A DNA stretch of 64,000 nucleotides from an uncultured delta proteobacterium (GCA_963765675.1 CAVXXK010000001.1:320001-384000); one strand, 5' to 3'; positions 21,573 through 37,028 are shown, counted from the first letter of the stretch. Notes: generated from the letters alone by a model not told the origin. Program-made: numbers and translations.

Positions 21573-22367
21573 ATGATGACGCCGATCATCGACACGCATT
21601 GCCATCTGGCCGATCCCAAACTCGACCAGGATCTCGAGGCCGTTCTCGAACGCGCCCGCATCGCAGGAATCGCGCGGATCGTTTCAGTCGGCGCGATCGG
21701 ATCTGTCGAATGCGATCGCCGCACGGTCGAAATCGCGGAGCGCCACGAACATATTTTCGCCGCGATCGGAGTGCATCCGCACGACGCGAAAGATTGCACT
21801 CCCGCGCGGATCGCGCAGTTGCGCGAGCTCGCGCGATCGCCGCGGGTGGTCGCGATCGGCGAGAGCGGCCTGGATTTTCACTACATGCACTCGCCTGCCG
21901 AGGCTCAGGAAGCGGCGCTGCGGCGTCATCTGAAACTCGCTTCCGAGCTTGGAAAACCAATCGTTATCCACTGCCGCGACGCCGAGGATCGGCTCGCCGC
22001 GATCGTGCGCGAAACCGCGATCCCGCGGGCCGGCGGCGTGATTCATTGTTTCACCGGCAACGCCGCCGCCGCCGCGCGATTTCTCGAGCTCGGATTTCAT
22101 ATTTCGTTCTCGGGAATCGTGACGTTCAAGAATGCCGCCGCGGTGCGCGAAGCCGCGCGCATCGTTCCGGACGATCGCGTGATGGTCGAAACCGACGCGC
22201 CCTACCTCGCGCCCGAACCGTATCGCGGCAAACGCAACGAGCCCGCCTTCGTCCGCCGCACGCTCGAGGTGCTCGCGGAAGTGCGCGGCGCCGACGTTGA
22301 CACTCTCGCGGAGCTGACCGCCACCAACGCAACCCGCCTCTTCCGATTAACGGCGGCGGCGAAGTAG
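21573..22367 (+). CDS. tatD: TatD family DNase
   Basis: DTHCHL, GVHPH, IGESGLD, IHCR, HCF, ETDAPY. Confidence 0.95.
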   Translation: MMTPIIDTHCHLADPKLDQDLEAVLERARIAGIARIVSVGAIGSVECDRRTVEIAERHEHIFAAIGVHPHDAKDCTPARIAQLRELARSPRVVAIGESGLDFHYMHSPAEAQEAALRRHLKLASELGKPIVIHCRDAEDRLAAIVRETAIPRAGGVIHCFTGNAAAAARFLELGFHISFSGIVTFKNAAAVREAARIVPDDRVMVETDAPYLAPEPYRGKRNEPAFVRRTLEVLAEVRGADVDTLAELTATNATRLFRLTAAAK

Positions 22368-22422
22368 TGCCAGGTCGAGGTCATGCAGGGGCTCGGACAA
22401 CTTAGGCGCCGAGACCTCAGTC

Positions 22423-22527
22423 GTCATTTCGACCTAAGGGAGAAATCCCGAGCGAAGGACCACCGCATGTGGCGTTGGTTCCGGAGCATGGACGCCTCGG
22501 GATTTCTCGCCCAAGGCTCGAAATGAC
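22423..22527. repeat. GTCATTTCGA..GAGAAATCCC / GGGATTTCTC..TCGAAATGAC palindromic element
   Basis: Nested inverted arms read directly; same class as the elements at 24273-24416 and 24648-24808. Confidence 0.8.
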
Positions 22528-22591
22528 GATCGGTCTTTTGTCAATTTGCGCCGATTCACGGAATCGCTTCTGCGGGGTTATAGATACTGAG

Positions 22592-23104
22592 ATGCCCACG
22601 CTGGAAAAGCTCTCCCTTCCGCCGCCGTTCGAGGACGCGATGAAATCGCTCGAGAGCGAGATCATGCGCTTCATCCTGCGCAGCACGCGTGACCGCGAGG
22701 ACAGCCTGGACCTGTTTCAGGAGACGTGGCTGCGCGCATACCGCGCGTATCCGTCCCTGCGCTCGCACAATGGGCTGCGGCCGTGGGTATTCAGTATCGC
22801 GGCCAATCTGTGCCGCAATCGCGCGCGCGATCGGATGCGCCGGGCGCGCGTGATCGTGAACGACGGCCGCGACCCGGACGCGGAGGCCGAACGGTTCTTT
22901 CCGCACGCCGAGAGTTCTCCCGACGGCGTGATCGGACTTCGCCGCGCGCTCGCTGCGCTTCCGGGCAAGCAGGGCAAAGCGCTGATGATGCGCAAGTTCG
23001 GCGGGATGGAATACGCGGAAATCGCGACGGCGCTCAAATGTTCCCAGGAGAGCGCGCGGGCCAGCGTGTACCAGGCGCTCAAGAAGTTGAAGGCATCGCA
23101 ATGA
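22592..23104 (+). CDS. ECF-type RNA polymerase sigma factor
   Basis: Sigma2 (DLFQETWLRAY..WVFSIAANLCRN) and sigma4 (LPGKQ..YAEIATAL..RASVYQALKKL); about 170 aa. Confidence 0.92.
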   Translation: MPTLEKLSLPPPFEDAMKSLESEIMRFILRSTRDREDSLDLFQETWLRAYRAYPSLRSHNGLRPWVFSIAANLCRNRARDRMRRARVIVNDGRDPDAEAERFFPHAESSPDGVIGLRRALAALPGKQGKALMMRKFGGMEYAEIATALKCSQESARASVYQALKKLKASQ

Positions 23105-23922
23105 AAACCACCAATCAGAACAAGCAGATGGAAGCATCGAAAGAATTTGACGATCGCGACGTCGAGGCGCTGGTGCGCGCCGCGCATCCGGGAATCCGCC
23201 GCGCGATGAAGATTCTGCGGCGTCCCGAGGCGCGGATCGGAATCGTTGCGTCGCCGGTCGGACAACTGCTGGTGGCCGAGGGTCCGCACGGTTTTGCGAC
23301 GATCCATTTTCTCTCGTCCAGCGACGCCGAGCGTCCGCTTGAAAAGCTGCGGCGTAAATTCGATCTGCTCGAGAATGAAACCTGGCGCGCGGATACCGTC
23401 CGCGAGCTCGGGCGATATTTCGGCGGCGACTTCTCGGTGCTCGCTCACGAGGTCGATCTGGTGATGGTCGAAAGCGAGTTTCAGCGCCGCGCGCTGATGC
23501 GGCTGCGCGAGGTTCCGATCGGCTCGGTGATCACCTACCAGGGATTGGCCACGGCGGTTGGAGAGCCCGACGCGCAGCGCGCGATCGGCAACACGATGGC
23601 GTCGAATCCGATCCCGATCTTCATCCCGTGCCATCGCGTAATTCGCTCCGACGGAACCATCGGGAATTACGGCGGCGGGGTCAAGAACAAGATCACGCTG
23701 TTGCGCAACGAAGGATTCGCGCTCGGCCCGAGTGCGCGGATGCCGTCGAACCTCAGGATGCCGGCGTCGGCGGTGATGGGGCATCGGCATACGCATATCT
23801 ACTGCCGGCCGGATTGCAGCGCGGCGAAGCGCGCCGACCCGCGCCGCTCATTGATCTTCGCCGACGCCCGCCACGCGCGCGCCGCAGGCCTGCGCGCCTG
23901 CAAGCTATGCAAGCCCGGCTGA
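23101..23922 (+). CDS. Methylated-DNA--protein-cysteine methyltransferase (Ogt) fused to a C-terminal Ada zinc-binding domain
   Basis: FQRR, TYQGLA, RAIG, NPIPIFIPCHRV; C-terminal IYCRPDC..AGLRACKLCKP. Confidence 0.92.
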   Translation: MKTTNQNKQMEASKEFDDRDVEALVRAAHPGIRRAMKILRRPEARIGIVASPVGQLLVAEGPHGFATIHFLSSSDAERPLEKLRRKFDLLENETWRADTVRELGRYFGGDFSVLAHEVDLVMVESEFQRRALMRLREVPIGSVITYQGLATAVGEPDAQRAIGNTMASNPIPIFIPCHRVIRSDGTIGNYGGGVKNKITLLRNEGFALGPSARMPSNLRMPASAVMGHRHTHIYCRPDCSAAKRADPRRSLIFADARHARAAGLRACKLCKPG

Positions 23923-24237
23923 GTTGGGATTGAGCAGCACGCATCGCTCGACCAGCCGGCCAATCAGCCATCAACCGCCTATGGCAGAAGGAAACAATCT
24001 GCCAGTGGTGGCGGACGGCTCGTCCGCCTCTCCCCGCGAGAAGAGCCCATCGATAGTCGGCGAAGCGCGATCAGAAATGACCGGTGACGCCGATCCTCCT
24101 AAGAAACAGGATTGAGGATTCGTGGCACAGGCTTCAGCCTGTGCTGCTCACCCCGGGCACAGAGCAGAATCAATTCATAGAGGCGCATCGCGACGCGCCC
24201 GTCTTCGCAGTCCTCTGCCGGATACCCTCTCCCTCCG

Positions 24238-24447
24238 GATGATGTCGATTTTCTCGCGAATGCCCCCAGGATGTCATCCTGAGCCGTAGGCGAAGGATCT
24301 CCGCGAAGCGATTAGTGCAACTCTTCTGGGCGATTCGCACTAATCGCTTCGCGGAGATCCTTCACAGAGCCCGTCCTGAGCAACGCCGAAAGGGGGCAGC
24401 CTTCGTTCAGGATGACGGACAAGAATTCGGCATTTATCGAGAGCCTC
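24238..24447. mobile_element. MITE-like insertion 1 in a REP hairpin loop
   Basis: Splits CCCTCTCCC-tcc-GGGAGAGGG; CTCCG duplicated at 24233-24237 and 24448-24452; imperfect ends GATGATGTCGAT / ATCGAGAGCCTC. Confidence 0.6.
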
Positions 24448-24591
24448 CTCCGGGAGAGGGCAACGCGGCGCGGCGATTGCTTTTTTTTGCAATCGCCGTA
24501 ACGCGTGGGTGAGGGTGCTGCTCTGCTCATTTAATCGCGCGGCATGCGCGCCGCGCTGAAAAATGACCCTCACCTAACCTCTCCCTTTCAG

Positions 24592-24854
24592 GAGAGCTTT
24601 GCGTAATCGATTCCATTGAACGGGTCATGCGGCTGGCGAGATTCCTCGCGATGCGCGCAGCGCGAGCCGATCTGCACGCCGCAAAGCTGGCGCTGGATTC
24701 GCGCTCGGAATGACAACGTTTGCTGGTTTTGTGTCATTCCGAGCCCGTACAGGCGATGCGGATGGTGAGGTGCAGAGTACCGAATGGCAGCAATTGCGAG
24801 GAATCTCGCCCTGCGCACTGGGCACACTTTTCCGGTAGGTTATGCAAAGCTCTC
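24592..24854. mobile_element. MITE-like insertion 2 in a REP hairpin loop
   Basis: 15-bp TIR GAGAGCTTTGCGTAA / TTATGCAAAGCTCTC (1 mismatch); CCTTTCAG duplicated at 24584-24591 and 24855-24862; an uninterrupted site occurs at ~35214-35232. Confidence 0.75.
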
Positions 24855-24874
24855 CCTTTCAGGGCGAGGAATCA

Positions 24875-24911
24875 GAAAAGAAGAAAGACGCCGCTAGGGG
24901 CGGCGTCTTTC
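24875..24911 (-). terminator. Intrinsic terminator of the glycine-zipper lipoprotein cluster
   Basis: GAAAGACGCCGC-loop-GCGGCGTCTTTC stem followed on the minus strand by a T-rich tract. Confidence 0.75.
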
Positions 24912-24941
24912 GTGCGAATCTGAAATGTTAACCGAGATGAT

Positions 24942-25292
24942 CTATTCGGTTTCGTTCTGCTGTTGAAGTTGCTGCAACTGCTGGCGCTGCTGTTCGATTT
25001 CCTGCTGTTGCTGCTGCACTTGCTGACTGGTCTGGGCGTTGGCGTTCTCGTTGTTCTGCATCGAGTTGCCGACCGCATAGCCGGTCACTCCACCAAGTCC
25101 GCCACCGATAAGAGCGCCGGCTGCCGGATGTCCGACCGCTGCCCCTACCAGTGCGCCGCCGACGGCGCCGATTCCCGCACCGCCCAGCGTCCCTTCTTCT
25201 CGAGTCGAGAGCGGCTGGCTGCCAGCGCATCCTGCAATGAACAGCGCCGCTGCGAGCGTGATTCCTGCGATAAGGCCCGAGCGCGACCGCAT
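24942..25292 (-). CDS. Glycine-zipper lipoprotein with Gln-rich tail (copy 3)
   Basis: AAGGAGG RBS, lipobox IAGC, GAxxG repeats, polyQ coiled coil. Confidence 0.85.
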   Translation of the reverse strand: MRSRSGLIAGITLAAALFIAGCAGSQPLSTREEGTLGGAGIGAVGGALVGAAVGHPAAGALIGGGLGGVTGYAVGNSMQNNENANAQTSQQVQQQQQEIEQQRQQLQQLQQQNETE

Positions 25293-25330
25293 GATGGCCT
25301 CCTTGCCTACCCTTTACCTCGTAGGCCTGG

Positions 25331-25678
25331 TTATTCCGTTTCCTGTGATTGTTTCAACTGCTGGAGCTGCTCGCGTTGCTGCTCGATCTCCTGCTGCTGA
25401 GATTGAATTTGCGTTTCGGTCTGTGCGTTGGCGTTTTGCTGATTCTGCATCGAGTTGCCGACGGCGTAGCCGGTCACTCCGCCAAGTCCGCCGCCGATCA
25501 GAGCACCTGCAGCCGGATGCCCGACCGCAGCCCCGACCAGCGCGCCGCCGGCGGCGCCGATTCCCGCGCCGCCCAAGGTACCTTCTTCACGAGTGGAAAG
25601 CGGGTCACCGGAGCATCCCGCCACCAGAAAAAGAACAGCCAACGCGAGGGTTCCTGTCACAATTGCTGGCTTGCGCAT
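25331..25678 (-). CDS. Glycine-zipper lipoprotein with Gln-rich tail (copy 2)
   Basis: GGGAG RBS, lipobox VAGC, paralog of the flanking ORFs. Confidence 0.85.
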   Translation of the reverse strand: MRKPAIVTGTLALAVLFLVAGCSGDPLSTREEGTLGGAGIGAAGGALVGAAVGHPAAGALIGGGLGGVTGYAVGNSMQNQQNANAQTETQIQSQQQEIEQQREQLQQLKQSQETE

Positions 25679-25714
25679 GATCGATCTCCCTGACTGATTA
25701 GACTCGGCAGGGAG

Positions 25715-26068
25715 CTATTCCGTTTCATTCTGTTGCTTGAGCTGTTGAATTTGTTGGCGCTGCTGTTCGAGCTGCTGCTGCTGCGACTGAATCTGGGATT
25801 GCGTCTGCGCGTTGGCATTCTCCTGATTCTGCATCGAGTTTCCGACCGCAAACCCGGTCACGCCTCCAAGCGCGCCGCCGATTGCCGCGCCGGCGCCGGG
25901 AGCTCCCACCGCCGCACCGATAATCGCGCCGGTCGCCGCGCCAAGGCCTCCGCCAATCAGGGTGCCTTTTTCACGGGTTGAGAGTGGCTGTCCACTGCAC
26001 CCGGTCATTACTCCGAGCGCAATTGCCATTAGAATCACGGTTAAGGTTTTAGTTGCGAATTGCAGCAC
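25715..26068 (-). CDS. Glycine-zipper lipoprotein with Gln-rich tail (copy 1)
   Basis: GGAGGAG RBS, GTG start, lipobox MTGC. Confidence 0.85.
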   Translation of the reverse strand: MLQFATKTLTVILMAIALGVMTGCSGQPLSTREKGTLIGGGLGAATGAIIGAAVGAPGAGAAIGGALGGVTGFAVGNSMQNQENANAQTQSQIQSQQQQLEQQRQQIQQLKQQNETE

Positions 26069-26243
26069 GGCCCTCCTCCATCATTAGCCGGGTAGTTTCG
26101 ACGCCGCTTTGCCCAGCTCGAACTGCAAACCCCGGGTGGCAGAACCCGAAGTTTCGTATCTTATCGAGGCACGATCAAGCAAGCCGACCACTTTCCTGAA
26201 CAATAATTAAGCATGATTGGAATCGTGCATCCATCGGAGCGCT

Positions 26244-26960
26244 TCACGGCAGGACGGCGAAGCATCGCGTCGGCCCTCCCGTGCCCTTGCCGATCTTCAT
26301 CGGAATACAGAAAATCGTCGCACCCTTAGGGGGCAATTTATCCGCATTGGCAAGGTTCTCGAACCCCGGCTTGCCGGCTCCGAGCCACGCGCGATGCACC
26401 GGGTAGTCCTTCGAGATGCCGGGGTCCATGCTTGCCGTATCAATCGCGATCGCGGCGACATTGCGGTTCTTGAGCATCCAGTTGACGGCCTCGGCCGAGA
26501 AGCCGGGAAAGCGCAGCCCGGCCACGTCGCCCGGTTTGTCGGTGCCCATGTAGGCTTTCGTGTCGGGCCAATATTTGCCCCATCCGGAACGCGCAACGAC
26601 GATCGCGCCGTCGGGAATACGGCCGTAGGTGGTTTCGTAACGCTCGAGGTCTGCGACGCTCAACGTCGCGTTGCGATCTTTCGCCGCGCGATCAGAAAAA
26701 TCTACGACCGCCGCGGGACCGACGCAGCTCGCGAGCGGCACCTGGTCGAGCGTCAGGCCATCGCGGCTATAGTGAATCGGCGCGTCGGCGTGGGTTCCGA
26801 AATGTTCGGGCGCGGCATAAGTGGCCGCCGAGTAGAAATAATTTTCGGACGTCCCGTTCTGAGCTTCGAACTTATGCTCGAAACGCCCCTCGCCCGGCCA
26901 ACCGATAGTCGTGCTGTCGAAGGTGTAGGTCAGGTCGATAATCTTTGCGGAATCTATCAA
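26244..26960 (-). CDS. Cyclase family metal hydrolase (kynurenine formamidase-like)
   Basis: IIDLT, EHFGTHADAPIH, ENL, G.GGPTR. Confidence 0.9.
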   Translation of the reverse strand: MIDSAKIIDLTYTFDSTTIGWPGEGRFEHKFEAQNGTSENYFYSAATYAAPEHFGTHADAPIHYSRDGLTLDQVPLASCVGPAAVVDFSDRAAKDRNATLSVADLERYETTYGRIPDGAIVVARSGWGKYWPDTKAYMGTDKPGDVAGLRFPGFSAEAVNWMLKNRNVAAIAIDTASMDPGISKDYPVHRAWLGAGKPGFENLANADKLPPKGATIFCIPMKIGKGTGGPTRCFAVLP

Positions 26961-26984
26961 CTCGCGCCCGCCGTCATCATCCCA

Positions 26985-28754
26985 TCACCATCCGATTACC
27001 TGCGTAGGCATGACCGGTTGCGCCTGTCCGCGAGGGTCGCACGCCCCGCTGAGCAATCCCGGCGCGCGATCGATCGAAACCGCTATGACGTGGCCCTCGG
27101 ACCATGGCGGCCGCACCTCGATTTTGTGGCCGCGCTCGGCGAGCTCGGCGCGCACACGCGGATCGATTCGATCTTCGAGGCGCAGCACGCCCGGCATCGT
27201 GTTGTGCGGGTAAAAGGTGGACGGAAAGTGCGGGGTCGAGAATTTGGGCGCCTCGATCGCCTCTTGCAGATCCATTCCGAAATCGACTGCGTTGAGAAAA
27301 AACTGGAACGTCCACTGATCCTGCTGATCTCCGCCGGGCGTGCCGAATGCCATGTACGGCTCGCCCGCGCGCATCGCAAGCGACGGCGACAATGTTGTGC
27401 GCGGGCGCTTGCCCGGCACCAGCGCGTTGGGATGATTCTCGTCGAGGTAAAAGGTCTGCATCCGGCTTCCGAGCGGGAACCCGAGTGCCTCGATCACCGG
27501 CGAGCTCGGAATCCATCCGCCGCTCGCCGTCACCGCGATCATATTGCCCGCGCGGTCGCAGGCGGCGACGTGAATCGTTCCCTCGCCCCACGGACGGGCG
27601 GGAGCGGCGCCACCGGCGCGCAACGCCTGCATCGCAATCGGATCGCCGGGGCGCTGCTCCATCGACGCGCGGCGCGGATCGATAAGTCCTCGTCGCAGCT
27701 CCGCGTAGCGCGGCGCGAGCAGGCCGTCGATCGGCACGCGGGTAAATTCGGGATCGGCGTAGTAGGCCTCGCGATCGGCAAACGCGAGCTTGGCCGATTC
27801 GATCACGGTGTGGATATACTCCGCCGAGTTGTGGCGCATCGCGCGCAGGTCGAAGCCTTCCAGGACGCGGAGCTGCTGCAAGAACACGGGACCCTGTGAC
27901 CACGGACCGCATTTGAAGACGCTGACGCCGCGGTAATCGACGCTCAAAGGCTGCTCGATTCGAGTAGTGAAACCCGCGAGGTCGGATGCGTCGAGCAAGC
28001 CACCTTGCTCATCCGACCACGCCGCGATGTCGCGCGCGATATCGCCGCGGTAGAAGCGCTCGCGCGCCGCTTCCAGCGCAGGCTTGCGGCCCTGCTGCTT
28101 CGCGGAGGATTCGGAATCGAGCAGACGGCGGTAGAATCCTGCCAGCGCGGGGTTCTTGATAATCGCGCCCGGCTTCGGAACCTCGCCGCCCGGAAGATAG
28201 ACGCGCGCCGACGACGGCCATCGCGTGCGAAATCTTTCAGCGTTGGCGCGAATCGACGCGCCCGCTCCCGCCTGATACTGCTCGCCCGATTCAGCCGGCT
28301 CGCCGCACAATCCGACATGCATCGGAAATCCGTCCTCGGCCAGCTCGAGCGCGGGCTCCAGAACCTGCGCCAGCGACATCGTTCCGAACTCAGACAGCGC
28401 GGTGACAAGCGCGCCGAGCGCGGCGGGAACTCCAGCGGCGAGCAGGCCGGAGGGCGGAATCAGCTCTTTTCCCAGAGCGCGGAATTTGGCGATCGTCGCA
28501 CGCGCCGGCGCGATCATGTTGCCGTTGATCGCGACTACGCGGCGGGCATCAGCCGAGTAGATGAGCATCGGCGCTTCGCCGCCGATCGTATGCATATGCG
28601 GATTAACCACGCCCTCGACGAACGTCGCGGCGACCGCGGCGTCGATAGCGTTTCCGCCTCGGGCGAAGATTCGCGCTCCCGCCGAAGCCGACAGATAGTG
28701 CTGCGTTGCAACAACGGCCTGGCGGCCCATCACGAGCGGATACAATGTAGGCAT
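26985..28754 (-). CDS. Gamma-glutamyltransferase family protein
   Basis: GGNAIDAAVA, FYRGDIA, KLAFADRE, autoprocessing Thr (GT), PGKRPRTTLSP, GTPGGDQQ. Confidence 0.92.
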   Translation of the reverse strand: MPTLYPLVMGRQAVVATQHYLSASAGARIFARGGNAIDAAVAATFVEGVVNPHMHTIGGEAPMLIYSADARRVVAINGNMIAPARATIAKFRALGKELIPPSGLLAAGVPAALGALVTALSEFGTMSLAQVLEPALELAEDGFPMHVGLCGEPAESGEQYQAGAGASIRANAERFRTRWPSSARVYLPGGEVPKPGAIIKNPALAGFYRRLLDSESSAKQQGRKPALEAARERFYRGDIARDIAAWSDEQGGLLDASDLAGFTTRIEQPLSVDYRGVSVFKCGPWSQGPVFLQQLRVLEGFDLRAMRHNSAEYIHTVIESAKLAFADREAYYADPEFTRVPIDGLLAPRYAELRRGLIDPRRASMEQRPGDPIAMQALRAGGAAPARPWGEGTIHVAACDRAGNMIAVTASGGWIPSSPVIEALGFPLGSRMQTFYLDENHPNALVPGKRPRTTLSPSLAMRAGEPYMAFGTPGGDQQDQWTFQFFLNAVDFGMDLQEAIEAPKFSTPHFPSTFYPHNTMPGVLRLEDRIDPRVRAELAERGHKIEVRPPWSEGHVIAVSIDRAPGLLSGACDPRGQAQPVMPTQVIGW

Positions 28755-29012
28755 CGTGAAACCTCACCAGTATGTGGACATTTGTGCATCTTCAGGTCTT
28801 CGCGGGATGCGATCGCGCTACGCGTTCGGTTAAAGACCTGCCCCGAAAGAGCCATCGAAGCAAGCCTGCTACATCTTTCTACCTTCGCAATCAGCGTTTG
28901 AATTCGCGAAACCCAAGCATCGTTAGGAATATTGGGAATATAAAGATTTCCACAAGCTGGGGAAAACGAATCGGACGCTCATTAATAACGTCTAAATATT
29001 AGGCCCGAAGCT

Positions 29013-29021
29013 TGCTAGAAT
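29013..29021 (+). promoter_or_regulatory. Extended -10 promoter element (TGcTAGAAT) in an AT-rich region
   Basis: Matches TGnTAnnnT, 57 nt upstream of the small ORF at 29078. Confidence 0.5.
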
Positions 29022-29077
29022 AAAAATCGGTGGATGAGGAAAACTGACGACCGGACTGGCGCAAAGAGGACAAGACA

Positions 29078-29284
29078 ATGATGGCCAGCACAAGTATCGA
29101 GGCGGCGGTGGGGCGAAATTGCCGATTACTGAGACCAGTTCGCGATCATGAAGGTCGCAATCGTTTCGGTGAGAGACCCCTTATCCTGCGCGAGGTAAAC
29201 AACCTGGACCGGCACATGTACCTAGTGCAGTTCGACGACGGAGCCACCACTTTTCTGTTTCCCGACGAAGTCACGGTGGAATAA
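29078..29284 (+). CDS. Small hypothetical protein, probable SH3-like beta-barrel
   Basis: AGAGGA RBS, upstream promoter, beta-strand pattern ending YLVQFDDGATTFLFPDEV. Confidence 0.7.
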   Translation: MMASTSIEAAVGRNCRLLRPVRDHEGRNRFGERPLILREVNNLDRHMYLVQFDDGATTFLFPDEVTVE

Positions 29285-29375
29285 CCGCAAAGGTTTTTCG
29301 CTCGACTTTGTCCGCTGCGAAGCGTCGCTTGAGAATGCGCAAACTGCGCAGGAGGTTTTCTGCGCCGCCGACCGG

Positions 29376-30395
29376 CTAGGCCGGCTCTGCCGTAGGATCG
29401 CTTTGGCGAATCGCGGTCAGCTCTCGCGACGCGCGCGGCACGAAGAACAATCCGATCACCGCATTGCAGAACATGTAGGTGAACTGAGCCACTAGGCTGT
29501 ATGCGACCAGCTTTGCCGGCGACGCGCTGCCTGCGAAGAACAATAGCCACGCCGCCTGGCTGGTTCCCAGATGCGCGACCGAGATCGGCAGCGCGCCCGC
29601 CAGGAACACCAGCGGCAGAAATAGAATCAGCCGCAGAACCGGAATCGATACGCCATAGATCGCCAGCGCGAAGTAGTGCGCGACCGCTGACGCAAGAAAC
29701 GTCGGCGCCTTGATCGCGAGCACCGCCGCATAATCGAGCGGACGCGCCGCGATGAACGTCTGCGCGATCGCGCCGGCGCGTCCTTGCTCGACCCAATCGC
29801 GAATACGCGGGCTGCGCCGCACAATCGCAAAAAAAATCATCACGCCAAAGAGCAGCGTCCACGCGAGCAGATAGACGATGCGCAGGATTCCGATGATCCG
29901 CGCCTGCGTCGCTCCGACTGGCGTATAGAACAACACTCCGACCGTCGAGAACAGGAACAATTGGTAGATCTCGAGCATCGCGATGAACAGGATCGAGCTG
30001 AGCGCGGAAAGAAAGGAAAAGCCGCCCTTGCGATGCAGGTAGTACGCGACCCCGCCCTGCGCGAGGCCGGTGTTCAGCATCGCGAGCACGTACATGCTCG
30101 CGCGAATCGGCAGGATATCGCGCCAGCGCATCGGCGCGTTGAACCGCCGCACCACCCACGCGAGGCAATAGGAATCGATGATGCAGTAGAAGATCGAGTA
30201 GGGCAGAAAAATCGCGACGAACTTCGCAATCGGGACCTGGCGCAAATCGGCGGCGACCTTTGACGCCGAGATTCGCCAGAAGATCAGCACGAAGATGATG
30301 ACCGTGCCGGCGTAGGGAATCGCCTTGCGCCACAGCGGCGCGCCCGCTTTCGCTGCCGGCTGCTCGCGACGCTGCGATGCGCCGGGCGCGGTCAT
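29376..30395 (-). CDS. Lysylphosphatidylglycerol synthase TM / flippase-like membrane protein
   Basis: Multiple TM helices, LPISVAHLG motif; coupled to the upstream MaoC gene. Confidence 0.7.
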   Translation of the reverse strand: MTAPGASQRREQPAAKAGAPLWRKAIPYAGTVIIFVLIFWRISASKVAADLRQVPIAKFVAIFLPYSIFYCIIDSYCLAWVVRRFNAPMRWRDILPIRASMYVLAMLNTGLAQGGVAYYLHRKGGFSFLSALSSILFIAMLEIYQLFLFSTVGVLFYTPVGATQARIIGILRIVYLLAWTLLFGVMIFFAIVRRSPRIRDWVEQGRAGAIAQTFIAARPLDYAAVLAIKAPTFLASAVAHYFALAIYGVSIPVLRLILFLPLVFLAGALPISVAHLGTSQAAWLLFFAGSASPAKLVAYSLVAQFTYMFCNAVIGLFFVPRASRELTAIRQSDPTAEPA

Positions 30396-30820
30396 CGCGA
30401 GATGAGCGGCGCCCGCGCGGTGCCGGTCAGAACCGCCTCACCGCGTTGATTTTCGACCCGCATCGATAGCTCCGCGAATCCGTTCGCGATCCGCTCGATC
30501 TTCGCGCGCGCCGCCAGCGTGTCGCCGTAGAGCACCGGCTTGATGAGTGCAGCCTCGAAGCGGCCGCCGCGGTAGAAATCCTCGCCGAAGCGATCGGCGA
30601 TCAATTGCATCATCACCGCGATCGTCTGCTCGCCCGCAGCAATCGGCTTAGCGAATCCCGCCGCGGCTGCCGCCTGCGGATCGCTATGGATATTCTTGGT
30701 GCGCCTGCGCGCAGGCTCCTTGACGCTCGCGCCGTAGGCCTCGGCGGCTGCGTCGTCGAGCAGGTACGGCGCGGCGGCAATCACCTCGCCTTCGCTTGGA
30801 TGCCGATGTTCTTCGCTCAT
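30392..30820 (-). CDS. MaoC-family hotdog-fold protein
   Basis: NIHSD..A..AGF..PIA.G, KPVLYGDTL, VENQRGEAVLTGTA. Confidence 0.8.
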   Translation of the reverse strand: MSEEHRHPSEGEVIAAAPYLLDDAAAEAYGASVKEPARRRTKNIHSDPQAAAAAGFAKPIAAGEQTIAVMMQLIADRFGEDFYRGGRFEAALIKPVLYGDTLAARAKIERIANGFAELSMRVENQRGEAVLTGTARAPLISR

Positions 30821-31263
30821 GCCATCCGTCCTTTTTCGTTGAGCAGCACCGAGGTTATCGCTTGCCGCGTCAGCAGCTCGCCGGTGGCGGCGTCGCGGGT
30901 TTCGTATTCGAGGGTGAAATAAAACTTGCCGCGCTTGTGCGCCGCGTCGGTGATCACGCCATCGACGCGCACCGCCTGCCCCGCGCGCATCGGCGCATGA
31001 TACTCGCACCAATGTTTCGCGTGCACTCCCCCTTTGCCGCCCTTGAAATGTTTCGTGATGAGTAGCGCGTAATCGAGCAGGCGCATCGTTGGCGGAGCGA
31101 TCGCGTTCTCTCCGGCATGCAGCAGATTCCTGCTGCCGATCGCGCGTGTGAACGCGCCGATCTGCTCGGCCGAGACGATGTAGAAGATCGGACCGAGCCG
31201 CATCCCTTCGCGGACGTTCTCCGCGCGCATCTCGAGCCGGGCTTCGCCGTCGTCTGCGCTCAT
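30817..31263 (-). CDS. MaoC-family (N-terminal half type) hotdog-fold protein
   Basis: IAPPT, GVHAKH.CEYHAPMRAGQ, KRGK pattern. Confidence 0.75.
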   Translation of the reverse strand: MSADDGEARLEMRAENVREGMRLGPIFYIVSAEQIGAFTRAIGSRNLLHAGENAIAPPTMRLLDYALLITKHFKGGKGGVHAKHWCEYHAPMRAGQAVRVDGVITDAAHKRGKFYFTLEYETRDAATGELLTRQAITSVLLNEKGRMA

Positions 31264-31321
31264 CTTGTTGATCCTCTGATTTGATCCCGGAACGCGGTCA
31301 TGGCAGATTCTGCGCACTCCG

Positions 31322-31990
31322 ATGCCGTATTCAACCGTACCATATGCGCGCGCCGCGCGGATGCATCTCGCGCGCGTCGATCCGGTGATGGCGGCGATTA
31401 TCGCCAAGGTCGGCGCGTGCCAGATCGTGCAGCGCCGCGAGCGCTTTCGGGCGCTCGCCCGCGCGATCATTTTTCAACAACTCGCCGGAGCCGCCGCCAC
31501 CGCGATCTACGGCCGGGTGGTTGGACTCTATCCGGGCCGCGCGTTTCCGCATCCTACCCAGATTCTCGCCACTCCCGACGCGATTCTGCGCAAGGCTGGA
31601 CTCTCGGCCAAGAAGGCGCTCTACATCAAGGACCTCGCGACGCACGTCGAAAAAAAGATTCTCAACTTTCATCGCTTCGCGCGCATGACCGATGAGGAAG
31701 TCATCGCCGACCTGACGCGCGTAAAAGGGATCGGGCGATGGACCGCCGAGATGTTCCTGATGTTCAATCTCGCGCGCCCCGATGTTCTGCCTGTAGACGA
31801 CCTGGGCGTGCGCAACGCCGTCGGACGCGCGTACTCGATGCGCAAGCCGCCGACGCCGAAAGAGTTGCGCGTCTTCGGACAGCGATGGAGCCCCTACCGG
31901 ACCGCGGCCGCATGGTACCTGTGGAAAAGCCTCGAGATCAAAACGCCCGGCACTGTGGATAGAAAGCCCGCGCCGCGCCAGCACCGCTAG
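31322..31990 (+). CDS. alkA: DNA-3-methyladenine glycosylase II (AlkA-type HhH-GPD)
   Basis: IIFQQL, GLSAKKA, VKGIGRWTAEM, LPVDDLG, WSPYRT. Confidence 0.88.
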   Translation: MPYSTVPYARAARMHLARVDPVMAAIIAKVGACQIVQRRERFRALARAIIFQQLAGAAATAIYGRVVGLYPGRAFPHPTQILATPDAILRKAGLSAKKALYIKDLATHVEKKILNFHRFARMTDEEVIADLTRVKGIGRWTAEMFLMFNLARPDVLPVDDLGVRNAVGRAYSMRKPPTPKELRVFGQRWSPYRTAAAWYLWKSLEIKTPGTVDRKPAPRQHR

Positions 31991-32070
31991 AGCTCGCGTA
32001 CGATCAAACTGACTTGCCATCAAAGCCGTGACGGTCGACACTGCCGCGCGAAATTTAGTAATCGATCGGC

Positions 32071-32919
32071 ATGCGCGTTCAAGTTGGCGACGGCAGGTTG
32101 TTCTTCGACGTCGAGGGCGCATCGCTGGTCCCCGACGGTCCGCGGATGCGCGAGCGTCCGACCCTCCTGATGCTCCACGGCGGTCCCGGCGCCGACCACT
32201 CGGTCTTCAAGCCCGACTTCTCGCCGCTGGCCGATATTGCTCAGGTGATCTACCTGGATCATCGCAGCGCCGGCCGCAGCGACCGCACCGGTCGCGATCG
32301 CTGGACGCTCGATCACTGGGGCGACGACGTTTACGCCTTCTGCGAGGCGCTAGAAATCAAGCGGCCAATCGTGATGGGCACGTCGTTCGGCGGGATGGTC
32401 GCGATGGCCTATGCGACGCGCCATCCAGATCATCCCGCCAAGCTCATCCTGTGCAGCACGGCAGCGCGGGTCGATCTAGCGCGCGTCTTCGCCGCCTTCG
32501 AGCGCCGGGGAGGACGCGAGGCGGCGGAGGCGGCTCTGCGATTCTTCCGGGATCCGTCGGTGAAAAATTCGCCCGACTATCTCCGGCTCTGCATGCCGCT
32601 CTATAGCTACCATCCCGATCCGCACCTGATGGAGATGTTCGCGCGGATGGCCGGGAACATGGAGCTGAATGAGCATTACCTGCGCGTGATCGAGACCTCG
32701 TTTAATCTCTTGCCGGATCTGCCACGCGTCAAATGCCCGACGCTGGTGCTGGCGGGCGACGAGGATCCCGTCACTCCGCCCGCCGACTCCGAGGATATCG
32801 CCGCCACGCTGCCGCCCGAACTCGCGCGCCTGGTGCGCTTCGCCAGGGCGGGCCACGGAATCGTCACCGACGACCGCGCGCGCTTCATGAATACGCTACG
32901 CGAATTCATTTTGTCATGA
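32071..32919 (+). CDS. Alpha/beta hydrolase (proline iminopeptidase-like)
   Basis: HGGPG, GTSFGG nucleophile elbow, GDEDP, AGH. Confidence 0.88.
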   Translation: MRVQVGDGRLFFDVEGASLVPDGPRMRERPTLLMLHGGPGADHSVFKPDFSPLADIAQVIYLDHRSAGRSDRTGRDRWTLDHWGDDVYAFCEALEIKRPIVMGTSFGGMVAMAYATRHPDHPAKLILCSTAARVDLARVFAAFERRGGREAAEAALRFFRDPSVKNSPDYLRLCMPLYSYHPDPHLMEMFARMAGNMELNEHYLRVIETSFNLLPDLPRVKCPTLVLAGDEDPVTPPADSEDIAATLPPELARLVRFARAGHGIVTDDRARFMNTLREFILS

Positions 32920-33947
32920 ACCCAAATCGAGCTCAGGTAATCGAGAGACTACTGAGTAGCGACGAGCCGTCGATTCGCTGGAAGGTGATGGTCGGCGTGC
33001 TCGGCGAACATCCTGAGTCGCGGAAAATCAGAGACCTCCGGCAGGAGATTCGCAACTCGCCGCGAGTGAAGGCATTGCTCGCCGGCCGCGACCAGAACTT
33101 CGTGCGCGAGGCTAAAGTATATTCCAAATATCAAGGGTCGCATTGGACGCTGGCAGCGCTGGCGGATATCGGATATCCGGAGGGCGATGAGTCGCTGCTG
33201 CCGATGCGGGATCAGGTCCTTAATCACTGGCTCGGCAAACCTTTCTACCTTGAGTTCGAGTCCAAGAGCAGCGTTCCGAAATCCAGAAGCGCCGAAGGCG
33301 TTCCAAAGATCCAGGGCCGCTATCGGCGATGCGCCTCCCAGCAAGGCAACGCGTTGCTTTCCGTTACCAGGCTGGGAATTGGCGACGGCCGAAGCGAGCG
33401 CCTGGCCGAGCGTCTGCTGCATTGGCAATGGCCTGACGGCGGATGGAACTGCGATCGGAATCCGTCCGCCGATACTTCGTCGTTCATGGAGAGCTTGCTC
33501 CCGATGCGCGCGCTCACGGCCTACGCGGACGCGAGCGGCGACGATGCGGCGCGCGCGGCGGCATTGAAAGCGTCCGAGGTTTTCCTGTCGCGGCGGCTGT
33601 TCAGAAGGCGCTCCGATGGAAAAATCATCCGCCCGAATTTTCTGATGCAGCATTACCCGTTGTTCTGGCATTACGAAGTCCTGGGTGCGCTCAAGGCGAT
33701 GGCGGAAATCGGACTCATCAATGATCCGCGCTGCGGAGAAGCGTTGGATATCCTCGAGCGAAAGGAGTTGCCCGCCGGCGGTTGGGCCGCCGAAGGACGG
33801 CATTACAAGGTGACGCCAAAGCTCGACACCAGCGAGGGGTTCGGATCCGACTCGCTGGTCGATTGGGGCGGTGTCGGAAAGCGCCGAATGAACGAATGGG
33901 TTACAGCCGACGCGCTTTACGTCCTGCACGCCGCCGGCCGCGTCTAG
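32916..33947 (+). CDS. Conserved hypothetical protein, prenyltransferase/squalene-oxidase-repeat-like
   Basis: QWPDGGWNC repeat-like motif, YPLFWHY, NEWVT..AL.VL; ATGA overlap with the upstream gene. Confidence 0.65.
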   Translation: MNPNRAQVIERLLSSDEPSIRWKVMVGVLGEHPESRKIRDLRQEIRNSPRVKALLAGRDQNFVREAKVYSKYQGSHWTLAALADIGYPEGDESLLPMRDQVLNHWLGKPFYLEFESKSSVPKSRSAEGVPKIQGRYRRCASQQGNALLSVTRLGIGDGRSERLAERLLHWQWPDGGWNCDRNPSADTSSFMESLLPMRALTAYADASGDDAARAAALKASEVFLSRRLFRRRSDGKIIRPNFLMQHYPLFWHYEVLGALKAMAEIGLINDPRCGEALDILERKELPAGGWAAEGRHYKVTPKLDTSEGFGSDSLVDWGGVGKRRMNEWVTADALYVLHAAGRV

Positions 33948-34042
33948 CCGCGTTTAGCAATGACCGTCGGGACGCTGGTCCTACTATTCAGCAGGGCAGA
34001 CGCACGGCAGGATGCTACAATCCCGCGCCGGAGGCCTTCATC

Positions 34043-35026
34043 ATGCGACCTGTGAAATTCAATTGCGGACTGCCGACCACCGACTTCGCGGCGATGACCG
34101 CGATGGCGCGCCGGGCCGAGGAGCTCGGTTTCTTCTCAGTCTCGATCGACGATCACTTCTTCATGCGCGGTCTGATGTCCGAGCCCAACGCTCCCCATCT
34201 CGAATGCTACACGGCGCTGGCCGCGGTCGCCGCCGTGACCAAAACCGTCAAGCTCGCGCCGATGGTCACCTCGATGTCGTACCGCAACCCGGCGCTGCTG
34301 GCGAAGATGATCGCGACGCTCGACAATATCTCGGGCGGCCGCTTTATCGCGGGCCTCGGGGCAGGATGGTTCAAAGAGGAATACATCGCCTACAACTATC
34401 CCTACCCGTCCAACGCCGAGCGGATCGAGCAGTTCGCCGACGGGATCAAGGTTCTGAAGTCGATGTGGACCGAGGACGAGCCGAGCTATCACGGCCGCTT
34501 TCATTCGGTCGAAAAGGCCTACTGCTTTCCACGCCCGATCCAGAAACCTTATCCGCCGATCATGATTGGCGGCGGCGGCAAGAAGATTCTCAAAATCGCC
34601 GCCGAAGAGGCTGACATCCTGAACCTCAATCCGCCCATCACCAAGGGCGTGGTCGATATCGGCGACGCGATGAAGTTCGATCGCGCCGAGGTTCAGCGCC
34701 GCATCGGTATCCTCGACGATTTCGCGCGCGCCGCGGGCCGCAAAGCCGACGCGATCGAGATGTCGGGGCAGACTTTCGTGCTGATCGCGAAAGAAAAGAG
34801 CGTCGCGGACGCGATGATCAAAGCGACCGCGCAAGCGATGGGTATCGCCGACCCGGAGCTCGCGCGAACCTCGCCGCAGGTGCTGGTCGGCACCGTGGAC
34901 GAAATCAAACGGGAACTGGATTTCCGGATAGAAAAATTCCGGATGACCTATTTCGTCTGCCAGTTCATGGCCCCGGAAGGCGCCGAACTATTCGCCAAAG
35001 AGGTAATGCCAAAGTATCGGCGATAA
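34043..35026 (+). CDS. LLM-class flavin/F420-dependent oxidoreductase
   Basis: AEELGF..DH, YRNPALLAK..TLD.ISGGR..GLGAGW, PIMIGG; TGcTACAAT and GGAGG upstream. Confidence 0.9.
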   Translation: MRPVKFNCGLPTTDFAAMTAMARRAEELGFFSVSIDDHFFMRGLMSEPNAPHLECYTALAAVAAVTKTVKLAPMVTSMSYRNPALLAKMIATLDNISGGRFIAGLGAGWFKEEYIAYNYPYPSNAERIEQFADGIKVLKSMWTEDEPSYHGRFHSVEKAYCFPRPIQKPYPPIMIGGGGKKILKIAAEEADILNLNPPITKGVVDIGDAMKFDRAEVQRRIGILDDFARAAGRKADAIEMSGQTFVLIAKEKSVADAMIKATAQAMGIADPELARTSPQVLVGTVDEIKRELDFRIEKFRMTYFVCQFMAPEGAELFAKEVMPKYRR

Positions 35027-35063
35027 GATCATCATTAGTATTCGGCTGAAGGATTCGTCTGAA

Positions 35064-35232
35064 ATACCCTCTCCCCCCGGAGAGGGCGGCGCAGCGCGAT
35101 GCTTGCGATTCTTTTTTCGCAAGCATCGTGACACGCGGGTGAGGGTGCTGCTCTGCGTCTTTATAATCGCGCGTCGCTTCGCGCCGCGCTGAATAATGTC
35201 CCTCACCTGACCGCTCCCTTTCAGGGCGAGGA
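35064..35232. repeat. Uninterrupted copy of the composite REP-like element
   Basis: Colinear with 24222-24870 once the two insertions are removed; lies between convergent genes. Confidence 0.85.
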
Positions 35233-35258
35233 CAGACGGCGGGCGAGGAAGCCGCATG

Positions 35259-35981
35259 CTATTCAGCGAGCATCGGATTGGGCTTTGGATAGCCTAGCTC
35301 CGCGAGCTTCGCGTCGATCACCTCGAGGTCTTTGCTCATCGTCGTGTCGCGCGAGGATGATGCGTGCTCCGCTACATTCTCGATGCTGCGGCGAATCTCG
35401 CGCAGCGCGGCGCTCTCGCCCGCCGTCATCTGCACAATCGCGATAAAGCATAGCCACGGAATAACCACCGCCGCGACAACGGTCACGATAATCATCGTGC
35501 GCGCGCGCGCCTCGGATCGATCGGCGATCGAGAGCATCGCGGCGTCGTCGGCGGAGATCAGGTCGGAGACCAAGCCCTGCAAGTCACGCAGACGCGGCTC
35601 GAAGCTGTCGTCACCCGACGGCGCGGCGCGCATCGCGTCGAAAATCGGATTCGCCGTCTCCGCGATCTTCTCGATCGCGTCGTGCTGCGCCTCGGTGCTC
35701 GCACGCGAGCGCGCCACCTCGACCCAACCGACGAATCCGCGCTGTTGATCCCGAACAATCTGCGATGCTTCGGGCTGCGTGCGCGCCCAATCCATCTTGT
35801 ACAGTGCGTTTTCCATCCCACGCGCGGCCTCGAGCGCCGTGTATTGGTTTTCGTGCATCAACGCCGGCATCGCGCCGAATCCATAGAAGCCCAGTGCCAG
35901 GATCGGAGTCGCGATGAGCAGGATTATCGGCGCGATTACCGCGACGAATCGGAGCTTGGTGATGATCGTAATTCGGGCCAT
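35259..35981 (-). CDS. Two-TM membrane protein with a periplasmic helical (four-helix sensor-like) domain
   Basis: TM - helical domain - TM - short cytoplasmic tail; no kinase or MCP signalling motifs. Confidence 0.65.
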   Translation of the reverse strand: MARITIITKLRFVAVIAPIILLIATPILALGFYGFGAMPALMHENQYTALEAARGMENALYKMDWARTQPEASQIVRDQQRGFVGWVEVARSRASTEAQHDAIEKIAETANPIFDAMRAAPSGDDSFEPRLRDLQGLVSDLISADDAAMLSIADRSEARARTMIIVTVVAAVVIPWLCFIAIVQMTAGESAALREIRRSIENVAEHASSSRDTTMSKDLEVIDAKLAELGYPKPNPMLAE

Positions 35982-36097
35982 CGTCAGTACCGTTCTCAGA
36001 AGGTTGCGTGCAAACAAAGATGCGCGTGCGGCGCAGCCAAATGCAACGCCCGCCCGATATGATGCGTCCGGCGCGCGTTCGTGCAATGATCGCCGCG

Positions 36098-36967
36098 ATG
36101 AATTTCGCCGATCGCCTGGCCAACGCCGTGCGCCAGAAAAATTCCTGCGCGATCCTGGGCGTCGATCCACAGCTCGATACCAAAGACTCTTCCGGCGTGC
36201 CGAAATCGCACACGCTCGCGCGCTTCTGCTGCGAAATCGTCGAGGCCTGCGCATCGCATATCTGCGCGGTCAAGCCGCAACTCGCTTTCTATGAAGCGCG
36301 CGGGATCGACGGGATGCGCGCGTTCGTCGAGGTGGTGCGCACCGCGCGGCGGCTCGGCCTAATCGTGATCGCGGACGCCAAGCGCGGCGATATCGGATCG
36401 ACCTCGGCCGCATACGCGCAGGCGTTTCTGGGCGATGGCGATTTCGGATGCGACGCCGTCACCGTCAATCCTTATCAGGGCGCCGACTCGACGATGCCGT
36501 TTATCGCGAGAGTTCCGGCCGGCCGCGGCGTGTTCGTGCTGGTCAGGACTTCGAATCCGTCGTCGGGGGAATTTCAGGATATCGCCGCCGACGGCCGTGC
36601 GATGTGGGAGCACGTCGCCGCGCGGGTCCACGGATGGGGCAGCGACTATCTCGGCGAATCAGGATTGAGTCCGGTCGGCGCTGTTCTGGGCGCTACCTTT
36701 CCCGATGAAGCCCGCCGCGCGCGCAAGCTGATGCCCAACGCGTTCATCCTGGTCCCCGGCTACGGCGCGCAAGGCGCAAGCGCGACCGATGCGATCGCGG
36801 CCGCCCGCCCCGACGGCACCGGCATTATCGTGAACGCGAGCCGCAGCCTGATGTATGCGTTCAAAAAATCGGAAGGAAAATCCCCCGCCGAAGCCGCCTC
36901 CATCGCCGCCGCCGCGATGCGCGCGGACCTCAACGCCACCCTCGCAGCGACGCACGCCCGACTCTGA
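36098..36967 (+). CDS. pyrF: Orotidine-5'-phosphate decarboxylase
   Basis: GVDP, KPQLAFYE, DAKRGDIGST, LVPGYGAQG, NASR. Confidence 0.95.
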   Translation: MNFADRLANAVRQKNSCAILGVDPQLDTKDSSGVPKSHTLARFCCEIVEACASHICAVKPQLAFYEARGIDGMRAFVEVVRTARRLGLIVIADAKRGDIGSTSAAYAQAFLGDGDFGCDAVTVNPYQGADSTMPFIARVPAGRGVFVLVRTSNPSSGEFQDIAADGRAMWEHVAARVHGWGSDYLGESGLSPVGAVLGATFPDEARRARKLMPNAFILVPGYGAQGASATDAIAAARPDGTGIIVNASRSLMYAFKKSEGKSPAEAASIAAAAMRADLNATLAATHARL

Positions 36968-36968
36968 T

Positions 36969-36997
36969 CCCTCGCCCTGAAAGGGCGAGCGATCAGA
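36969..36997. repeat. REP-like hairpin CTCGCCC-tgaaa-GGGCGAG between convergent genes
   Basis: Reverse complement of the terminal module of the 35064-35232 element. Confidence 0.6.
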
Positions 36998-37028
36998 TTA
37001 GTCTTGCCGCTGGGGTCTGAGTACGCCG

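Follow-up and report, generated by a model that had tools for sequence, protein, structure and literature searches.

In the 64,000-nucleotide stretch of an uncultured delta proteobacterium genome analysed here (GCA_963765675.1 CAVXXK010000001.1:320001-384000, referred to below as the window), a spacer of about 1 kb separates two convergent genes, the upstream one of which lies on the plus strand and ends at 23922. The whole region of interest is contained in this spacer: an element resembling repetitive extragenic palindromic (REP) sequences, composed of four hairpins and interrupted by two inserts which look like MITEs, or miniature inverted-repeat transposable elements. We consider it probable that the REP-like element was there first, and that two unrelated MITEs, with ends of the IS5 and IS1182 families of insertion sequences (ISs), then landed in it, one in each of its terminal hairpins. 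The features at the locus, in window coordinates, are the following.

24222..24875, plus strand: host ("base") element, REP-like, built of four hairpins and twice interrupted; its excision product aligns with 35064-35232.
24225..24237, plus strand: left arm of hairpin A (CCCTCTCC) and first copy of CTCCG (24233-24237).
24238..24447, plus strand: insert 1 (MITE-1), 210 bp, with ends GATGATGTCGATTTTCTCGC... and ...CATTTATCGAGAGCCTC, flanked on both sides by CTCCG.
24448..24460, plus strand: second copy of CTCCG (24448-24452) and right arm of hairpin A (GGAGAGGG, 24453-24460).
24578..24591, plus strand: hairpin B, left arm (CCTCTCCC, 24578-24585), which shares its last bases with the first CCTTTCAG copy (24584-24591).
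24592..24854, plus strand: insert 2 (MITE-2), 263 bp, nearly palindromic, with terminal inverted repeats (TIRs) GAGAGCTTTGCGTAAT / GTTATGCAAAGCTCTC, flanked on both sides by CCTTTCAG.
24855..24875, plus strand: second CCTTTCAG copy (24855-24862), then hairpin B's right arm (GGCGAGG, 24863-24869) and AATCAG, with which the element ends.
35064..35232, plus strand: uninterrupted paralogue of the host element, recognised by alignment and folding; a paralogous "empty site" for both inserts.
24883..24911, minus strand: terminator-like hairpin GAAAGACGCCGC..GCGGCGTCTTTC, belonging to gene 24942-25292 and kept at all orthologous loci.
24942-25292, minus strand: the convergent downstream gene.

A first-pass annotation of this DNA had held that removal of the two inserts restores the element found intact at 35064-35232. 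This proved correct: when 24238-24447 and 24592-24854 are excised, each with one copy of its duplication, the remainder of about 170 bp aligns end to end with 35064-35232. The statements made there on the sequence itself, namely the CTCCG and CCTTTCAG duplications, the TIRs of insert 2 and the palindromes inside the inserts (GTCATCCTGA/TCAGGATGAC, pair I13; CGCGCTCGGAATGACA/TGTCATTCCGAGCCCG, pair I6; GAGATTCCTCGCGA/TCGCGAGGAATCTC, pair I2), were all reproduced, and so was an uncertainty of 1-2 bp in the boundaries, which comes to 1 bp per side because the tips of the elements (G...C) repeat the inner bases of the arms. Upon single-strand folding, the intact copy at 35064-35232 forms four successive hairpins (-48.6 kcal/mol, z = -5.8, with no shuffled sequence equally good). 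Insert 1 interrupts the first hairpin of the host element, hairpin A (CCCTCTCC-CTCCG-GGAGAGGG), and insert 2 interrupts the last one, hairpin B (CCTCTC-CCTTTCAG-GGCGAGG).

The host element, insert 1 and insert 2 are all multi-copy in this genome (142, 83 and 67 blastn high-scoring segment pairs (HSPs), respectively, the 142 being those of the 169-bp host unit), and thus the finding is not a matter of chance. The sequence CCCTCTCCC occurs 122 times in the genome and its complement 135 times, and the host element has what characterizes REP sequences, that is short palindromic units, intergenic location and a high copy number. As to a possible REP-associated tyrosine transposase (RAYT), the genome contains three distinct Y1_Tnp loci, with host REP motifs within 1.5 kb of none of them; as CCCTCTCCC hairpins lie near none of the three, the RAYT link was dropped. 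A 231-aa Y1 (RAYT-like) transposase is encoded by an open reading frame (ORF) of the locus L011 (C1:651026-654271; ORF 1396-2091, minus strand), and since the peptide words GNANLPIGV and ANQEIGVPG are found at both of its termini, this ORF appears to be flanked by a different REP of its own. An Rfam scan of 22000-37000 gave no relevant match. Public runs cover small shares of the stretch (0.13 or less) with no contig spanning the locus, and the loose contig ends at 24447, 24450, 24590, 24592 and 24855 in these runs represent other copies located elsewhere. The small contigs C8, C10, C11 and C13 of the assembly are 97-99% identical to parts of C1, C3 and C6, and the assembly thus seems to hold some strain variants or uncollapsed duplicates.

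The TIRs of insert 2 read GAGAGCTTTGCGTAA / TTATGCAAAGCTCTC (16 nt at 94% when one flanking base is counted, pair I5), and the conserved blocks further inside are GGCGAGATTCCTCGCGA and CGCGCTCGGAATGACA with their inverses. An nhmmer search with a profile made from ten copies revealed 45 loci of the MITE-2 family in the genome. The copies have in common their near-palindromy, the TIR GAGAGCTTTGCRTAAC, the block GGGCGAGATTCCTCGCGA with its inverse and the central pair CGCGCTCGGAATGACA / TGTCATTCCGAGCGCG, while the stretches in between have diverged. Among them are a tandem pair 40 bp apart (C15:22757-23321) and a 10-kb cluster of five (C1:928220-938239), one member of which (C1:937966) has inverted flanks.

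In the case of insert 1, the window copy ends in GATGATGTCGAT... and ...ATCGAGAGCCTC (family consensus GAGGCTGTCGAT), and the ends of the MITE-1 family are GAGGCTGTCGATTTTCTCGC... and ...CATTTATCGACAGCCTC. The TIR has a 12-nt core in the family consensus, from which the window copy differs by two changes at the left end and one at the right. Inside lies a long palindrome containing GTCATCCTGAGCC..GGATCTCCGCGAAGCGATTAGTGC plus its inverse. The family comprises about 30 loci in the genome, and its 49-nt core, GTCATCCTGAGCC..GCGATTAGTGC, occurs at 33 loci, many of them with decayed ends. In the window this core is found at 24273-24320 and its inverse at 24332-24416. It is nearly unchanged (many matches of 97-100% identity) even where the ends have decayed or are gone, which suggests that it is retained for a reason of its own. 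Small parallel stems, ATCCT/AGGAT and ATTCC/GGAAT, are present in the cores of MITE-1 and MITE-2. Matches to the 12-nt TIR (GAGGMTGTCGAT) in related genomes outnumber those to a control pattern (46 vs 1 in G009, 31 vs 0 in G003 and 11 vs 0 in G004). In the closest relative, G009, MITE-2 ends are found from a few bases to about 40 bp from MITE-1 ends (L143, G009:C3:129210-129640; G009:C1:839315-839553).

A genome search for both TIRs, as had been suggested in the annotation, thus found them in many copies (45 and about 30 loci) instead of at this locus alone. Both inserts have TIRs, a target duplication, many copies with no apparent transposase of their own and, in other genomes only, an autonomous element with the same ends, all of which is expected of MITEs. 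The ORFs that overlap them are short, and the inserts themselves are palindromic.

Within this genome (assembly 95.6% complete) we found no partner for either insert, the sole DDE_Tnp_1/DUF772 transposase being located on the small contig C9 and having different ends. The DNA around DDE_Tnp_1 matches in 41 genomes was scanned for the TIRs of both inserts. The TIR GAGASCTTTGCRTAAC (GAGACCTTTGCRTAAC...GTTAYGCAAAGGTCTC) bounds elements of 1187-1215 bp in G001, G013, G061, G062, G064 and G069. The single 327-aa transposase encoded by these elements matches Pfam DUF772 and DDE_Tnp_1, and scores 264 bits with NF033581 (IS5_4, cut-off 140) and 178-183 bits with NF033551 (IS1182), which is under the cut-off of 270. 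Its database homologues are named "IS5 family transposase". Judged by its ends and protein matches, the candidate partner of insert 2 is an IS5-family IS. One of the homologues comes from a Candidatus Binataceae bin, and a few public records containing the end of insert 1 are titled Candidatus Binataceae or Binatia; together, these names suggest that the lineage is Candidatus Binataceae/Binatia.

For insert 1, no partner was found among the DDE_Tnp_1 or DDE_Tnp_1_2 loci scanned, and plain TIR patterns placed 700-2500 bp apart gave no pair in G009, G005, G003, G004 and G014. Transposases of the PF13586 type (IS427/IS1031-like) were also considered and rejected, as none of those in the 41 genomes bears the ends of insert 1. 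When public genome contigs were scanned with one 16-mer, the matches listed were mostly due to chance, and L207 was among the matches listed. L207 contains an element of 1686 bp whose ends are identical to those of MITE-1 at 18/18 and 17/17 positions, including the asymmetric TTTTC / AAATA sub-ends. Its 523-aa transposase scores 273.8 bits with NF033551 (IS1182, cut-off 270) and matches DDE_Tnp_1_6 (79 bits), DUF772 and DDE_Tnp_1 in Pfam. This IS is located in a hairpin loop, ATTCCCGC-CTCC-GCGGGAAT, with a 4-bp duplication, CTCC. Related ISs with GAGACTGTCGATTTTC...TTTATCGACAGTCTC ends are present in G109 and G153, which belong to the window's own family, and a partial one in G004. The putative partner of insert 1 is, by a narrow pass, an IS1182-family IS of about 1.7 kb.

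What MITE-2 has in common with its IS is a TIR of about 16 bp, and what MITE-1 has in common with its own are ends of about 17-18 bp. An origin of MITE-2 by internal deletion of the IS was for this reason discarded, and likewise for MITE-1. As the MITEs share nothing but ends with the ISs, their palindromic cores are foreign to the latter, and we are dealing with "ends plus foreign core" MITEs. This bears out two proposals of the annotation, namely that these are non-autonomous IS5/IS1182-like elements and that they carry a second palindrome family as cargo; its expectation of a transposase with the same ends came true in other genomes, and failed in this assembly. Because neither transposase is present in the assembly, the MITE copies found here are probably stranded now.

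Other ISs of the genus also occupy repeats. A third IS, of about 1.5 kb, with GAGTTTGTGAG... ends and related to the C9 IS, is present in four copies in G009 (L107-L110), each located at CTCAG/CTGAG inside another palindromic repeat family, GTCATTCCGAGC...CGGGAATGAC. In the same genome, the ends of a different IS of about 1.5 kb (GGTGGCACAGGCTTTAGCC...; L027, L111, L112) resemble the adjoining hairpin GGCACCGGCTTTAGCCGGTGCC, which is again a mimicry between end and target.

To establish the order of events, we searched for the locus in 40 related genomes. In G005 and G003, which belong to the same genus (and in the unpublished G010), hardly anything separates the upstream gene's stop codon from the conserved terminator, and repeats are absent there. 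In G009, the flanks are 93-94% identical to those in the window, and an element of about 170 bp is present, the right half of which is orthologous to that in the window and contains an intact hairpin B (CCTCTCCCTTTCAGGGCGAGGAATCAG; CCTCTCCCTTTCAGGGCGAGG) at the orthologous position. G009 is thus a true orthologous empty site for insert 2. Since the left half of its element differs, it does not provide one for insert 1, for which there is only the paralogue at 35064-35232; the comparison with empty sites in related genomes that had been suggested could accordingly be made for one insert and not for the other. A search for more such sites at C3:179646 (MITE-1) and C1:587057 (MITE-2) yielded none, as the spacers are rearranged or different in the relatives. 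The host element came first, and both inserts followed, which makes three insertion layers within 650 bp.

In two other species (G001 and G002; L003, L005), another palindromic repeat, GTCATTTCGAGC...GCTCGAAATGAC, is located in the orthologous spacer before the conserved terminator. As different repeats are found at the same spot in relatives, the spacer before the terminator is a place where repeats pile up, and the site gathers them independently; the hairpin at 24883-24911 marks the edge of this insertion-prone spacer. Repeats serve as landing pads for other repeats in this lineage, with kilobase-long intergenic spacers being built up in this way. On the far side of the terminator, 24942-26068 contains three ORFs of 115-117 aa on the minus strand, which are paralogous and arranged in tandem. 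All three have a cysteine-containing start resembling a signal peptide, a middle rich in glycine and a tail rich in glutamine.

Other copies of the two families, in this genome and in its relatives, lie mostly in C-rich/G-rich palindromes and with duplications, which agrees with the original proposal of REP-hairpin targeting. In this genome, CTC[TG]CC is present within 16 nt outside 13 of 27 well-kept MITE-2 ends, compared to 1.14% of random 16-nt windows (binomial P about 1e-18), and most of the other ends among the 27 are one base off this motif. In five other genomes, the arm was seen by eye at 13 of 19 MITE-2 ends, and a CCTCTCC-like arm accompanies every full-length copy of the IS5-type IS. 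MITE-1 copies are found mostly in palindromes of several kinds (CCCTCTCC/GGAGAGGG, CCCCTTCC/GGAAGGGG, CCCCGT/ACGGGG and CCTCCTGC/GCAGGAAG). Perfect stems of at least 6 bp were found at 4/10 and 2/9 copies vs 7.7% of random sites, a comparison that says little, since the arms are mismatched and the search space is wide. In G061, two IS copies occupy the same hairpin type in opposite orientations, the 8-bp duplication of each being the whole spacer, and an intact copy of that hairpin is located a few hundred bases away from one of the two. The insertions affect more than one REP family. The claim that one REP family is targeted by structure thus stands as far as hairpins are concerned and fails as to a single family, and for MITE-2 the data indicate a reading of the arms instead of structure.

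It could be assumed that structure is all that matters, that is, that an extruded cruciform or hairpin is attacked 5' of each loop, as in the hypothetical "pathway c" of IS1272, in which case the loop would set the length of the duplication and the sequence of the arms would be irrelevant. Hairpin A is indeed stable (-8.7 kcal/mol on folding), the hairpins occupied by MITE-1 have quite different arms, and IS1272, of the IS1182 family, is described in two papers as using hairpin targets without a sequence consensus (PMC4923244, PMC5678879). However, the arms at IS5-type insertions resemble CCTCTCC without exception, in six genomes and in REP families whose loops differ, and the cut falls right after CCTCTCC even though one more pair could form in hairpin A and up to two in hairpin B. 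As the cut ignores a stem that could be extended, and as hairpin B folds weakly, a reading of sequence is favoured over pure structure for the IS5-type family, and we find recognition by structure alone unlikely. For MITE-1, in turn, a reading of structure is more likely, given its varied arms and IS1182-family partner. Insertions of this family fall close to the centre of C-rich/G-rich hairpins, as with other palindrome-seeking IS1182 elements, 5-7 bp being duplicated by the MITE and 4 bp by its one full-length partner.

The length of the duplications, which the annotation had supposed to track loop size, was assessed in a table of target sites comprising 23 IS or MITE-2 copies with both ends known, in which any sequence within one mismatch of CCTCTCC / GGAGAGG was counted as an arm. 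Both arms could be called in 18 of the 23 copies, of which 14 have the same arm-to-element distance left and right, amounting to 5, 7 or 8 bp. Direct duplications are perfect in 8/23 copies (5 bp: CGGAG, CTCCG; 7 bp: CTTTCAG, CAGAATG, CTGATAG; 8 bp: CCTTTCAG, TCGGACAA, TTGTCCGA); in six further copies a single base or an indel is the only difference, and in another one 5/7 positions match. The length follows the type of hairpin and not the genome, as MITE-2 duplicates 5 bp here in CCCTCTCC-N5-GGAGAGGG, and 7-8 bp in the hairpin with the TTTCA loop. The supposition therefore holds for the IS5-type family, in which 5, 7 or 8 bp is about the length of the spacer.

The MITE-1 family tracks loop size only roughly. 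Among the 15 copies in relatives whose TIRs are perfect, exact duplications were found in 9 (5 bp in five, 6 bp in three and 7 bp in one), and those in this genome are CTCCG, TTCAG (twice), GGAAG and AATCTG, that is 5 or 6 bp. The midpoints of these duplications lie no more than about 1.5 bp from the hairpin axis. MITE-1 duplicates 5 bp (TTTCA or TTCAG) in the TTTCA hairpin, and MITE-2 duplicates 7-8 bp there; such unlike duplications in the same hairpin imply that the two families read it differently.

Variable lengths might also arise if several related transposases with the same ends, each with a fixed stagger of 5, 7 or 8 bp, had acted at different times, each preferring another hairpin. 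The full-length ISs with 7- and 8-bp duplications are in fact diverged (85%, 69% and 62% amino-acid identity to the G001 copy), and no full-length IS with a perfect 5-bp duplication is present among the copies tabulated. Yet in one MITE family of one genome, duplications of 5 bp are confined to 5-bp spacers and those of 7-8 bp to 7-bp spacers, so that this explanation, which needs multiple transposases and their perfect pairing with hairpin types, is less economical and in our opinion improbable.

Another idea is that the arms are simply the outer parts of longer TIRs, and that free hairpins are solo remnants, i.e. ends abutted after loss of the interior. Two observations are in line with it: the IS tips, GAGAG/CTCTC, resemble the arms, and 4/23 copies (C1:937966, L075, L078, L081) have perfectly inverted arm-plus-spacer flanks. 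It is difficult to reconcile, on the other hand, with the intact hairpin of G009, which is located at the orthologous site within a conserved host element, with direct duplications of 5, 7 and 8 bp, with occupation of the same hairpin types by two unrelated MITE families, with the opposite orientations of the IS copies L085 and L086 when the asymmetric outer flanks of one REP type are taken as the reference, and with the fixed positions of hairpins in a 170-bp element with about 140 HSPs. We give this idea hardly any credence.

We thus return to two MITE families landing in pre-existing hairpins. Both MITEs would be mobilised in trans by their partner transposases, as their shared ends suggest. 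Since the duplication runs from arm to arm in the IS5-type family, joining on each strand would occur directly 3' of 5'-CCTCTCC-3', each strand transfer being placed immediately 3' of this motif on its own strand, without a constant stagger. In the IS5-type IS, the 3' end that is transferred is ...GCTCTC-3', and its resemblance to the arm suggests that the incoming end replaces a lookalike target strand. The transposase may read the arms with the same surface as its own tips, the hairpin being a mimic of abutted IS ends; each active site would then be placed by its own half-site, with the spacer setting the stagger, and each junction would again form a small CTCTC/GAGAG hairpin after insertion. 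It is tentatively proposed, as one possibility to which we give somewhat less than an even chance, that an IS5-group DDE transposase acts without a fixed stagger, that the half-sites of a tip-mimicking palindrome position its transfers, and that the spacer (5 to 8 bp, perhaps more) sets the duplication. If so, the hairpin families of this lineage would constitute a natural ruler series, and every insertion would create two new tip-plus-arm hairpins.

Several facts weigh against the picture drawn above. Mobilisation in trans is deduced from shared ends only, and no transposition was seen. The assignment of L207 to IS1182 exceeds the cut-off by less than 4 bits, and L207 comes from an unrelated metagenome bin. 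There is one orthologous empty site in all, for insert 2 only. Some MITE-2 copies are located at non-REP sites (C1:608986), and no palindrome can be recognised around a few copies. When folded as single-stranded DNA, hairpin B has little stability (-3.8 to -5.7 kcal/mol, z = -0.6 to -1.8). Insert 2 of the window duplicates 8 bp where a strict arm-to-arm rule predicts 7, and the two sides are unequal in 4/18 copies with both arms called. Lastly, the spacers are mutually inverted in the four copies already named and unrelated in one more. In three of the four inverted cases the same half of the REP unit is found on both flanks, as would be expected after an inversion between two copies inserted in opposite directions, and we tentatively attribute these copies to recombination between copies. 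Their reciprocal partners were not found, and two of the cases come from fragmented assemblies, in which repeat flanks may be chimeric.

How do these elements compare with known systems? Elements of the IS5 group use a short YTAR-like site, of which they duplicate a constant 4 bp. The partner of MITE-2 resembles them in size (about 1.2 kb), in its single transposase of about 327 aa, in its 16-bp TIRs and in its NF033581 score well over the cut-off, and departs from this 4-bp habit by duplications of 5, 7 and 8 bp and by a site that is a long palindrome. For IS1182 elements, duplications are recorded as variable in ISfinder. Bacterial MITEs that share TIRs alone with an IS are known as "type II" MITEs, and both inserts are similar to these in their IS-identical TIRs, target duplication, lack of coding capacity, many copies and foreign core. 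What sets them apart is that two such families, with ends from two IS families, share one host repeat, and that the cores belong to a class of palindromic repeats which also occurs elsewhere in this genome.

The elements most relevant here are IS1272/TnSha1 of the IS1182 family, which are reported to use hairpin targets without sequence preference and to delete the stem-loop with no duplication (Furi et al. 2016, PMC4923244; Wan et al. 2017, PMC5678879), the latter study also depicting a hypothetical route in which the loop only is duplicated. Both papers, citing Siguier 2015, state that some IS1182 members target palindromes, and this habit is evident here in the L207 IS, located in a hairpin loop, and in the MITE-1 copies found in palindromes. 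Like IS1272/TnSha1 as portrayed there, the ISs considered here are DDE elements of the IS5/IS1182 lineage with a DUF772-type N-terminus, they have inverted-repeat or hairpin targets, often downstream of genes, and the outcome appears to be set by the geometry of the target and not by a fixed stagger. The stem-loop replacement typical of IS1272, in which part or all of the stem-loop is deleted without duplication, was not seen: the arms are kept and the spacer is duplicated. Moreover, the targets of IS1272 are reported to have no common sequence, whereas the arms at the IS5-type element share CCTCTCC/GGAGAGG.

REP-targeting ISs of five families (ISPsy8, ISPa11, ISPpu9/10, ISRm22, ISRm19, IS1397 and ISKpn1) were described by Tobes and Pareja (2006, PMC1525189). 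As far as the accessible portion of that paper goes, they occur exclusively or predominantly within REP palindromes, in some cases right on the axis of symmetry, and each has one duplication length (0, 2, 3 or 6 bp); the hybrid direct repeats of ISRm22 are explained by recombination between copies, and ISNm1106, the sole IS5-family entry there, is associated more loosely ("type 2"). Insertion within REP palindromes is what our elements have in common with these ISs, and the differences are the MITEs and the spacer-length duplication, neither of which is described in that portion. A full-text literature search found no IS5-family element or bacterial MITE with spacer-length duplications in REP hairpins, although this is no proof of absence. 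Both REP-targeting ISs and hairpin-targeting IS1182 elements were thus already known, and what appears to be new is the spacer-length duplication by an IS5-family IS and a MITE in REP hairpins.

Duplication length is usually a fixed signature of the transposase, reflecting the geometry of its active sites, and is used as such in IS classification; annotation pipelines which expect a fixed duplication would therefore miss elements like these or set their boundaries wrongly. Here, an IS5-family element and a MITE appear to set 5, 7 or 8 bp by the spacing of half-sites, which amounts to a testable target-defined stagger and links the behaviour of the IS5 family to the hairpin-seeking habit of IS1182-family elements. 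The loop-duplicating outcome, drawn merely as a possibility in the IS1272 work, is seen here.

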